Source: a virus
DNA length: 21,394 bases
Virus genome (UHGV): UHGV-0175408
Strand: one strand, 5' to 3'
Shown here: positions 11,823 to 12,749 of the stretch, piece by piece
Numbering within the stretch: the stretch's first letter is position 1
Layout of the letters: every line of letters starts with the position of its first letter
The notes under the pieces: model-generated
What the model saw: only the letters and a program-made list of their open reading frames with translations
Told to the model about the DNA's origin: nothing
The model's database searches: none
Translations under genes and position numbers: made by a program

Positions 11823-12749
11823 TCAGAATGTCAATTTGTCACTGGATTTACCGAATTTGTCAGACATGGCTCCCAGGCCAGCCAGGACATCGACCTGTCG
11901 CTGTCGCCCACCTCCGGGAGCGGCTGGCTGTTGCCAGAAGTCTTCGAAGTGACGATCGGGTCCAAAGAACGTCGCAGCCTGCTTCACGAACTGTGTGCCG
12001 GTATTTCCTGTAGCACGTACCCAAGCGGCATAACGTCTCACACCATCAAGCATGGTCTCCGGTTTTATTCCCTCCCTGAGACGGGCTTTCCAGGCTTTGA
12101 AGGCTGCCGACTTGGAATTACCACCAGCACGTTTGGGATATTCCTGCCAGGCCTGTTCAAATTCCGGTGAATATTCCTGTCGGGCAGAGCGCGCTGGTGC
12201 AGACGCGTCAGCGGATGCGCCAATATCTTGCGGATCATGTTTTGAATTTACTTGCGGATCATGTTTTAAACCTTGTGGATCTGGGTCCAGATTCTGAAGG
12301 GTCAAAACCGTTTTTTTGCCAGAATCTGAAGGGTCAAACACACCTGAACATTCAGATTCTGACGGTTCAGATTTTGAAGGTTCAGATTTTGACGGGTCAC
12401 GTAGTACTGAAAGTCTGCGCTGCTGTTTTAGTTCTGCGACCTTATCCCGCTCCGTTCTGGCAAGCTGTTCAAGCCGATCAGCATTCAGATGATAAAGATT
12501 GGACGTATTACGATTACCTTTGCGGCGTGACTGACGCGTCAGCCAGCCATCAGCCTCCAGCTCTGAAATTGCTGTTCTTACTGTGCTTTCTCCCAACCCA
12601 AGCTGTCGGCATATTGTTTCAACACCGGGATAACACACCCCGTCATCATTCGAATAATCAGCCAGACGCGCCATGATCATCAGCTTTGCACCTTTGACTC
12701 CATACGCGGCACATGCATCCCAGACGTTACCGAGAATTTTGCTACTCAC
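11823..12749 (-). CDS. Replication initiator (lambda O-like), N-terminal winged-helix DNA-binding domain, repeat-encoded linker
   Basis: 308-aa ORF; N-terminal HTH (GESTVRTAISELEADGWL); central low-complexity repeats (DPSKSEPSKSEPSESE) encoded by DNA direct repeats; first gene of the replication module. Confidence 0.65.
   Translation of the reverse strand: MSSKILGNVWDACAAYGVKGAKLMIMARLADYSNDDGVCYPGVETICRQLGLGESTVRTAISELEADGWLTRQSRRKGNRNTSNLYHLNADRLEQLARTERDKVAELKQQRRLSVLRDPSKSEPSKSEPSESECSGVFDPSDSGKKTVLTLQNLDPDPQGLKHDPQVNSKHDPQDIGASADASAPARSARQEYSPEFEQAWQEYPKRAGGNSKSAAFKAWKARLREGIKPETMLDGVRRYAAWVRATGNTGTQFVKQAATFFGPDRHFEDFWQQPAAPGGGRQRQVDVLAGLGAMSDKFGKSSDKLTF
12228..12395. repeat. Iteron array (putative replication origin) inside the initiator gene
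   Basis: Direct repeats: cttgcggatcatgtttt x2 (tandem), cagaWtctgaagggtcaaa x2, ttcagattYtgaMgg x3 (tandem); same arrangement as lambda ori inside O. Confidence 0.6.

Follow-up and report, generated by a model that had tools for sequence, protein, structure and literature searches.

The segment 12222-12399 of the window studied here, a 21,394-nt stretch (21.4 kb) of a phiP27-like lambdoid prophage of Escherichia coli (E. coli), is probably the replication origin of the phage, lying inside its initiator gene, in the part that codes for the linker. A first-pass annotation of this DNA had proposed that the repeats in this gene are initiator-binding sites which mark an in-gene origin. We infer the same from four independent comparative results: selection acting at the nucleotide level, conservation of a frame-shifted repeat copy, co-inheritance of the repeats with the N-terminal domain of the initiator, and the presence of different repeats next to different DNA-binding domains.

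An origin placed inside a gene is a well known arrangement, and the understanding of phage replication initiation is left unchanged by our results; this initiator family is uncharacterised. Initiators of phiP27-like and SfII/SfIV-like prophages had been annotated as 'unknown' or only as 'helix-turn-helix protein'. The family is common, with the exact module present in 57 of 5426 complete E. coli genomes and relatives in Shigella, Klebsiella, Yersinia, Proteus, Providencia and Pantoea. Our analysis provides a testable candidate origin for the phiP27-like and SfII/SfIV-like prophages, about 180 nt in all, in which TCARAWTCTGR cores and an anchor copy are combined with an AT patch that bears GATC sites. 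Knowledge of the origin would aid prophage annotation and the building of phage-derived replicons, and would help to predict incompatibility or cross-activation of co-resident prophages, including Stx phages which share the C-terminal, loader and helicase module. No literature on phiP27 replication was found in the papers searched, the matches listed for the core sequence included no phage or plasmid replication work, and the Eru papers on Stx-phage replication regions mention neither iterons nor this initiator.

Initiator gene, its neighbours and the repeats

The initiator gene (11823-12749, minus strand; ORF and translation) codes for a protein of 308 aa with an N-terminal winged helix-turn-helix, a low-complexity linker and a C-terminal domain. 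The product is 97% identical to phiP27 L17 and is an HTH_36-type phage replication initiator: residues 23-70 match Pfam HTH_36 (PF13730, E 9e-12) with 45 bits against the curated cut-off of 25, and residues 2-307 match PHROG 270, 'replication initiation protein' (E 1.1e-79). The DNA-binding domain is encoded by nt 1-267 of the gene (12483-12749, minus strand). It gives a gap-free alignment of 129 homologues; of its 89 residues, 39 are invariant among 42 representatives, and the invariant S55, T56 and R58 fall in the helix aligning with the recognition helix of FadR. The composition of the linker is disorder-like, with 52 of 68 residues being disorder-promoting. For the C-terminal domain (11823-12224, minus strand), which presumably contacts the loader and the helicase, the window initiator gave no Pfam match, and the domain is not PF09524.

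Genes of a helicase loader and a helicase follow directly downstream on the same strand. The loader gene (10934-11812, minus strand, 292 aa; start codon chosen by analogy with the RefSeq annotation) codes for a DnaC/IstB-like AAA+ protein, as judged by matches to Pfam IstB_IS21 (PF01695, E 6e-15), PHROG 50 (E 4e-89) and NCBIfam DnaC (E 7e-38, under the curated cut-off). The product of the helicase gene (9546-10937, minus strand, 463 aa) belongs to the DnaB family of replicative helicases, with matches to Pfam DnaB_C (PF03796, E 3e-73), the DnaB N-terminal domain, PHROG 19 and TIGR00665 (E 2e-92, under the curated cut-off). These matches confirm the earlier claim that the initiator is accompanied by a DnaC-like loader and the phage's own DnaB-like helicase, and the three genes make up an initiator, loader and DnaB-type helicase module. 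Initiator genes with the C-terminal class of the window are followed by a DnaC-like gene in 22/22 cases and by a DnaB-like gene in 21/22, against 1/107 for the other classes.

The repeats at 12222-12399 are real. Tandem Repeats Finder (TRF) gave one array at 12351-12399 (period 15, 3.3 copies, score 77) and another at 12222-12281 (period 24, 2.7 copies, score 69), and these two arrays in the initiator gene have the top two TRF scores of the entire window, where no other repeat cluster of comparable score was found. Three families of direct repeats had been described previously; the repeats themselves stand, but the number of families is two, since the 20-nt copies at 12287-12306 and 12319-12338, which a direct-repeat search added, have one core in common with the 15-nt units and form one family with them (D2, five copies). 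This near-palindromic 11-nt core, TCARAWTCTGR, has sites at 12287, 12319, 12352, 12367 and 12382, with no further site in the 21-kb window. The second element, GATCCRCAAG, has sites at 12227, 12251 and 12272. With five cores observed against 0.06 expected, and three GATCCRCAAG sites against 0.12 expected by chance, all within 180 nt, a chance origin of both repeat elements is excluded.

Three tandem 15-nt units (12351-12399, minus strand) are the proposed iterons. They carry the core as TCA-A/G-AA-TCT-GA at 12352-12362, 12367-12377 and 12382-12392, and are translated in frame, as DPSKS/EPSKS, to DPSKSEPSKSEPSESE. The spaced copy TTTGACCCTTCAGATTCTGG at 12319-12338 (minus strand), also in frame (FDPSDSG), is the family-wide 'anchor' copy and has the best dyad symmetry, and a second spaced copy, TTTGACCCTTCAGAATCTGG at 12287-12306 (minus strand), lies 32 nt from the anchor and is read in another frame (LTLQNLD). 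The spacing of the cores is 15 nt in the tandem units and then 33 and 32 nt, which is about three helical turns. All five span 12287-12392, corresponding to residues 118-155 of 308, with the N-terminal domain encoded on one side of them and the C-terminal domain on the other. Repeats of both families lie inside the ORF 11823-12749 on the minus strand, at residues ~118-174, which bears out the previous description of them as sequences within the initiator gene that encode its repetitive linker.

AT-rich patch, mosaic structure and proposed mechanism

The AT-rich patch at 12222-12282 (minus strand, 65-70% AT) is the proposed unwinding element. It contains the three GATCCRCAAG elements, 21-24 nt apart and each with a GATC (at 12233, 12257 and 12278). 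Within it, 12237-12276 is the most AT-rich 40-mer of the gene (70% AT) and begins 12 nt past the last core, and the position of such a patch directly downstream of the last core is kept in 33 of 41 relatives. The first-pass annotation had seen no AT-rich element beside the repeats; this has to be corrected, since the 24-nt family is itself the top AT 40-mer of the gene, and it is right in so far as the patch is weaker than that of lambda (70% vs 80%). Duplex instability of the patch is only at the 93rd percentile of the window, and nearby 40-mers are more AT-rich, e.g. 13122-13161 with 75%.

The GATC sites of the patch are conserved through codon choice as tightly as the iterons. They are present in 41/42 lineages, the Asp codon is GAT in 78/79 cases in the second (GATC) element vs GAC in 107/122 in the core units, and GATC density reaches 10.6 per kb in the linkers vs 2.9 in the remainder of the gene. 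In the DNA alignment KH16, a close relative, retains only one of the three GATC sites of the patch. In 23 of the 42 lineages a gene for an N6-adenine methyltransferase lies downstream of the initiator gene at a distance of no more than 1.6 kb, and in many cases it overlaps the initiator stop codon; the enzymes belong to two unrelated families, PF05869 and PF02086. By analogy with oriC and P1 oriR, the origin of this widespread Enterobacterales prophage initiator family, being also a coding sequence, might be gated by adenine methylation, an idea that we regard as rather doubtful; if it were true, initiation would depend on, or be sequestered via, the methylation state of the origin. Neither DnaA boxes (TTATCCACA, at most one mismatch), as a DnaA-dependent origin would have, nor the IHF consensus were found in 11000-13500. 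Three DnaA-like matches with two mismatches in this interval all coincide with GATCCRCAAG and are too weak.

Megablast and pairwise alignment revealed a mosaic junction at 12225-12226, with the domain, the repeats and the AT patch as an N-terminal module on one side and the C-terminal module on the other. Megablast matches to many Stx-phage 'O' genes end at query nt 403, and at 12225/12226 the pairwise alignment flips from unrelated to ~97% identical. The C-terminal domain is 93-96% identical in initiators with an unrelated N-terminus; one of them, Stx1_14040, has the same C-terminal domain together with other repeats (3 x 23 nt, 23-nt spacing). At least two C-terminal types, three by inspection, are found on one N-module. 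In the initiators of Min27, RAH1, Vibrio D75 and Aggregatibacter S1249, with domains 30-40% identical, each domain is immediately followed by 21-24-nt repeats of its own, and in three of these four sets (RAH1, D75 and Min27) dyad symmetry is seen by inspection. Taken as a whole, the alignments indicate that the repeats are co-inherited with the N-terminal winged-helix domain, and the C-terminal domain with the loader and helicase.

We infer initiator binding, melting, helicase recruitment and origin activity in the following form. The N-terminal winged-helix domain, probably dimeric, would bind the five near-palindromic cores, and the resulting nucleoprotein complex, together with supercoiling and transcription through the gene from the early promoter, would lead to melting of the 60-nt patch 12222-12282. 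The C-terminal domain would then recruit the phage DnaB-type helicase via the DnaC-like loader. Against this scheme stand, besides the modest AT content of the patch, the lack of DnaA and IHF sites and the GATC losses of KH16, two further observations. The 15-nt spacing of the tandem cores, compared with 20-24 nt in lambda and in more distant relatives, is short for adjacent dimers and puts successive sites on near-opposite faces of the helix; in addition, a tandem copy number of 2-6 is what slippage-prone coding repeats would give.

It is also conceivable, but in our opinion unlikely, that the repeats do bind a protein but serve some purpose other than that of an origin: the initiator might use them to regulate its own replication operon, or a different phage or host protein might recognise them, with the origin located elsewhere, e.g. 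in an AT-rich intergenic region such as 13105-13164. Constraint at the DNA level implies a ligand and not its task, the N-terminal domain resembles repressors of the GntR/FadR type, and more AT-rich stretches are available within 1 kb. However, the sites are situated mid-gene, ~350 nt from the start codon, with no promoter-like site nearby on the gene strand, where a scan gave no internal promoter or terminator, and the window offers no comparable-score repeat cluster in another place. Moreover, the module boundary lies exactly past the AT patch, as expected of a unit of domain, sites and patch, and the order of repeats followed by an AT patch matches the mapped origins of lambda and SPP1 (PMC5737612).

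Selection on the repeats as DNA

Codon usage was compared in 42 representatives with <85% nucleotide identity in the DNA-binding domain. At invariant residues of this domain synonymous codons are randomised (K19, AAA 20 and AAG 22; D31, GAT 21 and GAC 21), and all six Ser codons are in use at S33. For the repeats, 218 units were picked by peptide pattern. Their first Ser is encoded by TCA in 202/218 cases, while TCA makes up only 51 of the 409 Ser codons in the domain, and it predominates in the repeats of 40 of the 42 lineages. Lys of the unit is always AAA (137/137). The third codon is TCT or TCC and never AGY, and the amino acid at this codon varies (S, F, Q, H, P, Y, N, I). Third-position information amounts to 1.17 bits in the anchor region vs 0.58 in the domain. 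In 37 representatives the anchor sequence CAGAATCTGG hardly varies, with 1.5-2.0 bits at each position, and it persists even where a Ser codon has become a Pro codon. The frame-2 reading of the 12287-12306 copy is kept throughout the phiP27 subclade, including members with ~85% domain identity (L013, L101-L108). We also considered programmed frameshifting on the A7 run that separates the two spaced cores, but dropped the idea because KH16, L101 and L109 do not preserve this run.

Because synonymous sites are frozen in the repeats and randomised in the domain, the repeats are selected as DNA, that is, they are under purifying selection at the nucleotide level. This selection is independent of the reading frame, because the 12287-12306 copy is conserved as LTLQNLD and not as FDPSDSG. 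The region may be viewed as a natural dual-use sequence, in which the constraint on binding sites sets codon choice and even tolerates a change of frame.

This codon pattern bears directly on a view of the repeats according to which they have no function as DNA and matter at the protein level only, as slippage-prone codons for a flexible, acidic linker, rich in Ser and Pro, that connects the two domains. Such a linker would fit the in-frame DPSKS/EPSKS units, the disorder-type composition given above and the conservation of the peptide motif in relatives, as well as the variation of tandem unit number from 2 to 6 among near-identical alleles, in whole 15-nt steps and with a gene length of 912-972 nt. 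We nevertheless find it very improbable, as it does not account for synonymous positions which are frozen here and randomised in the adjoining domain, for third codons where the amino acid changes and the nucleotides stay, for Ser to Pro changes which spare CAGAATCTGG, for a core copy conserved in another frame, or for an Asp codon depending on position (GAC in the cores, GAT in the second element).

It is likewise very improbable that the repeat tract serves chiefly as a hot spot at which lambdoid phages exchange initiator modules by recombination, with no direct role in replication. The sharp mosaic junction at the array edge could be read in this way, and the lambda record marks recombination points just past its iterons, but the junction of the window is in unique sequence at the array end and not within shared repeats. 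The repeats cannot supply the homology, since those of the partners joined at the junction are unrelated to each other, and the synonymous sites frozen across lineages would be left unexplained. Finally, it is scarcely credible that the nucleotide conservation reflects an overlapping gene or RNA structure: the antisense ORF of 169 codons spanning the repeats (12167-12676, plus strand) is not conserved, with no alternative frame open across the repeats in 17/42 and the commonest antisense frame open in only 22/42, and the mRNA segment, although folding somewhat better than shuffles (z = -2.5), reaches a modest score which palindromic cores give alone, has no Rfam family match in the repeat tract and would have any defined fold broken by a copy number of 2-6.

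Comparison with known origins

In lambda, four iterons and an AT-rich region are located in gene O; the N-terminal domain of O binds the iterons and the C-terminal domain recruits P-DnaB. The layout of the window equals that of lambda almost codon for codon. Lambda iterons begin at codon 117 and are read in frames 0, 2, 2 and 1, and the first core of the window is at codon ~119; the top AT-rich 40-mer of lambda gene O (80% AT) starts 3 nt past the fourth iteron, the corresponding distance in the window being 12 nt from the last core. In both cases the sites are internally dyad-symmetric, do not all share one reading frame and occupy a linker that joins an N-terminal domain specific for the origin to a C-terminal domain that can be exchanged. 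The differences concern the sites, which are 18-nt iterons every 20-24 nt in lambda and an 11-nt core in the window, arranged in 15-nt in-frame tandem units plus two copies at 32-33 nt, and the AT patch, which, unlike in lambda, is itself repetitive and has GATC sites. They extend to the partners, as the window phage has its own DnaB-type helicase and a DnaC-like loader where lambda has the P protein. The likeness to lambda ori put forward in the first-pass annotation holds for the layout, whereas the protein resembles O only by its role. We rejected its assignment to the lambda O family, as it has no match to Pfam Phage_rep_O (PF04492) at E <= 0.01 (lambda O itself, 5.7e-36), and hhalign of the domain alignment against lambda O gave a probability of 1%.

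Plasmid iterons are 19-22 nt long, have a spacing of ~22 nt and are placed outside the rep gene, unlike the 15-nt units of the window, which lie inside coding sequence. Plasmid Rep domains gave only weak, sub-threshold Pfam matches in the relatives (RP-C, E 4e-3). The E. coli oriC and the P1 plasmid origin possess GATC-bearing unwinding regions, and a cluster of GATC in an AT-rich patch adjoining initiator-binding repeats, putative in our case, is what they have in common with the window; in contrast to them, the window has no DnaA boxes (at most one mismatch) nearby. According to the passage of PMC2865523 which cites Abeles and Austin (1987), P1 replication needs methylated DNA. With the iteron plasmids of RepA, pi and RepE type (PMC4980987) the window shares a winged-helix initiator devoid of an ATPase domain, direct repeats and an adjoining AT-rich region.

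Among Stx phages, 933W and the 'P27' of the Wegrzyn laboratory have lambda-type O, P and ori, with six iterons (PMC7466680). As in the family of the window, iteron number in these phages varies between relatives and the length of the protein follows it. Since the 'P27' of PMC7466680 has a lambda-type O, it is evidently not phiP27 (AJ298298), whose L17 is of the HTH_36 type.

The combination of initiator, loader and own helicase with an in-gene origin is already established for phage SPP1, in which oriL, composed of iterons and an unwinding element, is found inside the initiator gene 38, G39P is the loader and G40P the helicase (PMC5737612). SPP1 is a Bacillus phage, from a host phylum unlike that of the window, where the loader is a DnaC/IstB-like AAA+ protein. 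Relatives of the window initiator (LLS and YeP3 class) carry PF09524, the C-terminal domain of the G38P family. SPP1 and the window both have an initiator without an AAA+ domain, with the genes of a loader and a DnaB-type helicase immediately downstream.

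Repeat organisation of the initiator gene

The best two tandem arrays detected by Tandem Repeats Finder in the 21.4-kb window are both located in the linker-coding part of the initiator gene, at 12222-12281 (period 24, 2.7 copies, score 69) and 12351-12399 (period 15, 3.3 copies, score 77). A repeat search grouped the 20-nt copies at 12287 and 12319 with three 15-nt units, giving five copies of a core, TCARAWTCTGR, all in 12287-12392 (0.06 sites expected by chance). The second element, GATCCRCAAG, is found three times, exclusively in 12227-12281 (0.12 expected). Both programs and the counts thus bear out the direct repeats reported in the first-pass annotation; its number of three families is reduced to two, since the 20-nt copies belong with the 15-nt units.

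On the coding strand the DNA-binding domain is followed by three tandem units (DPSKS-EPSKS-EPSES), core copy 4 (12319-12338, encoding FDPSDSG), core copy 5 (12287-12306), three GATCCRCAAG elements and the C-terminal domain. The core is a near-palindrome (TCAGA-W-TCTGA), and its copies at 12382, 12352, 12319 and 12287 are spaced by 30, 33 and 32 nt, roughly three helical turns. Near-identical E. coli alleles carry between 2 and 6 tandem units, and the minimum core total observed in the subclade of the window is four.

No obvious AT-rich element had been noted beside the repeats, which holds only in part, as the 24-nt family itself is the highest-AT 40-mer of the gene (12237-12276, 70% AT). The distance from the last core to its start is 12 nt, and a GC-rich stretch comes next; the patch contains three GATC sites in 46 nt, and its instability ranks at the 93rd percentile of the window. 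Among relatives, 33 of 41 genes have their top AT 40-mer (65-75% AT; gene mean 47.6%) starting about 20 nt past the last core. Lambda O has its iterons from codon 117 onwards and an 80% AT 40-mer starting 3 nt past iteron 4. With the first core of the window at codon ~119, the layout is thus that of lambda, with a weaker patch.

Constraint on the repeat DNA

We collected 160 related loci, which yielded 129 unique full-length genes and 42 representatives sharing less than 85% nucleotide identity in the 267-nt domain-coding part (mean identity 70% for nucleotides, 78% for amino acids). At invariant residues of the DNA-binding domain the synonymous positions of these representatives are essentially random: K19 is encoded by AAA in 20 and AAG in 22, D31 by GAT in 21 and GAC in 21, and S33 by all six serine codons. 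Repeat units of the same representatives, selected only on the basis of their peptide pattern (S-[KEDQ]-x-[DEG], 218 units), behave differently. Their first serine is TCA in 202 of 218 cases, compared to 51 of 409 serine codons in the domain, with TCA predominant in 40 of 42 lineages; lysine is always AAA (137/137), and the third codon is TCT or TCC, never AGY, in spite of the third-codon amino acid varying (S, F, Q, H, P, Y, N, I). Around the anchor copy, the family-wide spaced core (copy 4 here), third positions carry 1.17 bits versus 0.58 in the domain, and CAGAATCTGG is near-invariant there, also where the codon changes from Ser to Pro. The 32-nt distance between copies 4 and 5 puts copy 5 in a different reading frame (LTLQNLD instead of FDPSDSG), and this frame is retained in subclade members with only ~85% domain identity; lambda iterons are likewise read in different frames (0, 2, 2 and 1).

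An overlapping gene as the cause is rejected, for 17 of 42 representatives lack any alternative frame that stays open through the tract. No Rfam family matched the repeat tract, and neither promoter nor terminator was found on the strand of the initiator gene. We conclude from the synonymous-site, codon-choice and reading-frame comparisons that the constraint on the tract acts at the nucleic-acid level; DNA bound by a protein is the simplest explanation.

Two other features of the tract were noted. The antisense ORF 12167-12676 (plus strand, 169 codons) covers all of it, and is probably not a gene; only 22 of 42 relatives have the matching frame open. An A7 run of the coding strand (T7 on plus, 12311-12317) sits between core copies 4 and 5, and a -1 shift there would read copy 5 in the ancestral frame (FDPSESG) up to a stop 11 codons later. 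As the run is interrupted in KH16 (L003, a close relative), L101 and L109, it is probably not functional.

Asp codons depend on position: GAC in 107 of 122 core units, GAT in 78 of 79 second-element sites, whereby GATC is preserved in 41 of 42 lineages. In relatives devoid of loader and helicase genes, the initiator is immediately followed by an N6-adenine methyltransferase gene, which frequently overlaps the initiator stop codon (e.g. L007:3352-4239, L009:3436-4245, L010:4106-4690, L011:3481-4290). Such a gene is present downstream of the initiator in 23 of 42 representative loci and belongs to two unrelated families, PF05869 (18 lineages) and PF02086 (5). The least ordinary aspect of the system is that GATC is so strictly conserved within the presumed melting patch and that adenine-methylase genes are frequent just downstream of the initiator in relatives; this could reflect methylation-dependent control. 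A counterpoint is KH16, in which GATCC is changed to GAACC in both 24-nt repeat copies (alignment A1, columns 260-300), removing two of three GATC sites in concert; related loci L054 and L065 have GAACC in the second element too.

Prophage setting and modular build

The window is a lambdoid prophage or phage. Its initiator gene shares 97% identity with L17 of Stx2e phage phiP27 and 99.9% with a prophage of E. coli strain 504838. The minus strand carries, in order, a cro-like gene (15087-15401), two Rha/Ant-type genes, two small ORFs, the initiator (11823-12749, GTG start codon at 12749), a DnaC/IstB-like ATPase (10934-11812), a DnaB-family helicase (9546-10937) and antiterminator Q (8909-9292); the CI repressor gene (15449-16141) is divergent. 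The DnaC-like gene (phiP27 L18) is 759 nt long in the phiP27 RefSeq record NC_003356 versus 879 nt in E. coli RefSeq records, so its start was probably called too far downstream in phiP27. Upstream of the replication genes, C4 antisense RNA (84 bits, 13575-13662, minus) and an isrK-like sRNA (55 bits, 13687-13763, minus), both matched in Rfam, constitute a P1/P7 immI-type antirepressor control. They fall within the 5' half of a RefSeq 'ash family protein' ORF (13158-13820), a call that may be partly spurious unless the region is dual-use. Between Q and the lysis genes are located an OmpC-like porin gene (7622-8719, plus; Porin_1, E 8e-155), an N6/N4 DNA methylase gene (5774-6820, minus) and tRNA genes (5439-5592, minus), where ARAGORN called one tRNA-Gly(tcc) and Rfam gave a second tRNA-like match (5520-5592) that ARAGORN did not call. 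This is about the position in which Stx phages carry stx; no stx gene was found in the window.

For many Stx-phage 'O' genes, similarity to the initiator gene is confined to its last 403 nt. In the alignment with Stx1_14040 identity jumps from unrelated to ~97% at 12225/12226, one base past the last GATCCRCAAG, and the unrelated N-terminus of that gene is accompanied by its own repeats at the equivalent place (three 23-nt copies spaced 23 nt apart, three 12-nt copies). Conversely, SfIV, SfII, LLS, KpF5, YeP3 and 716R3 have an N-terminal domain of the type seen in the window (~60% identity), with 3-7 tandem units that contain the same core; their C-terminal domains are other ones, with no adjoining loader or helicase. 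Among the 129 genes, the C-terminal class of the window is followed by a DnaC-like gene in 22/22 and a DnaB-like gene in 21/22 cases, versus 1/107 with such neighbours for the remaining classes. In more distant HTH_36 initiators (Min27, Klebsiella RAH1, Vibrio D75, Aggregatibacter S1249) the domain is directly followed by three or four 21-24-nt repeats that differ from those of the window, with dyad symmetry seen by eye in three of the four sets (RAH1, D75, Min27). Together these comparisons give the classic picture of an origin-specificity module, made up of the domain and its sites, joined to a recruitment domain that can be exchanged.

Just past the mosaic junction, within the C-terminal module, lies a GC-rich near-palindrome, GCAGACGCGTCAGC (12199-12212, 12 of 14 positions symmetric), common to Stx1_14040. 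In lambda a palindrome is also present beyond the AT-rich region. An SfIV-type initiator gene in L086 and L091 (E. coli ECDA1023 and ECGI0523) is interrupted past residue ~77, where unrelated sequence takes over, apparently in a rearranged prophage remnant.

Candidate origin and known systems

The main rival explanation accepts that the sites are bound and assigns the binding another purpose. The DNA-level constraint, the modularity and the lambda-like layout support, with the corrections made here, the earlier proposal that the repeats mark an origin inside the initiator gene, and we consider it likely that the repeat region is the origin of replication of this phage. The arrangement of domain, repeats and AT-rich patch is observed; for such an origin we infer three steps. 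Initiator dimers would bind the cores; the DNA-binding domain aligns weakly with dimeric GntR/FadR winged helices, and its putative recognition-helix residues are invariant across lineages sharing the core. Given their spacing, copies 12382, 12352, 12319 and 12287 would sit on one helix face, while the 15-nt tandem spacing would place neighbouring cores on nearly opposite faces. The initiator-core complex would then melt 12222-12282, and the C-terminal domain would recruit the phage helicase via the DnaC-like loader.

Our literature search found no paper describing the core, or replication of phiP27 or SfIV-type phages; 'P27' of PMC7466680 has a lambda-type O and is therefore evidently a different phage. 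The candidate origin belongs to a well-known kind. It would work like ori-lambda, but by sequence its initiator is no homologue of lambda O. The variation from 2 to 6 tandem units parallels the four versus six iterons of lambda and Stx phages (PMC7466680). The loader and helicase genes accompanying the initiator had been rightly recognised earlier, and their pairing is not new: in SPP1, oriL lies inside gene 38, and the initiator G38P, loader G39P and own helicase G40P are established experimentally (PMC5737612). The G38P-type C-terminal domain, PF09524, was also found on relatives of the N-terminal module studied here.
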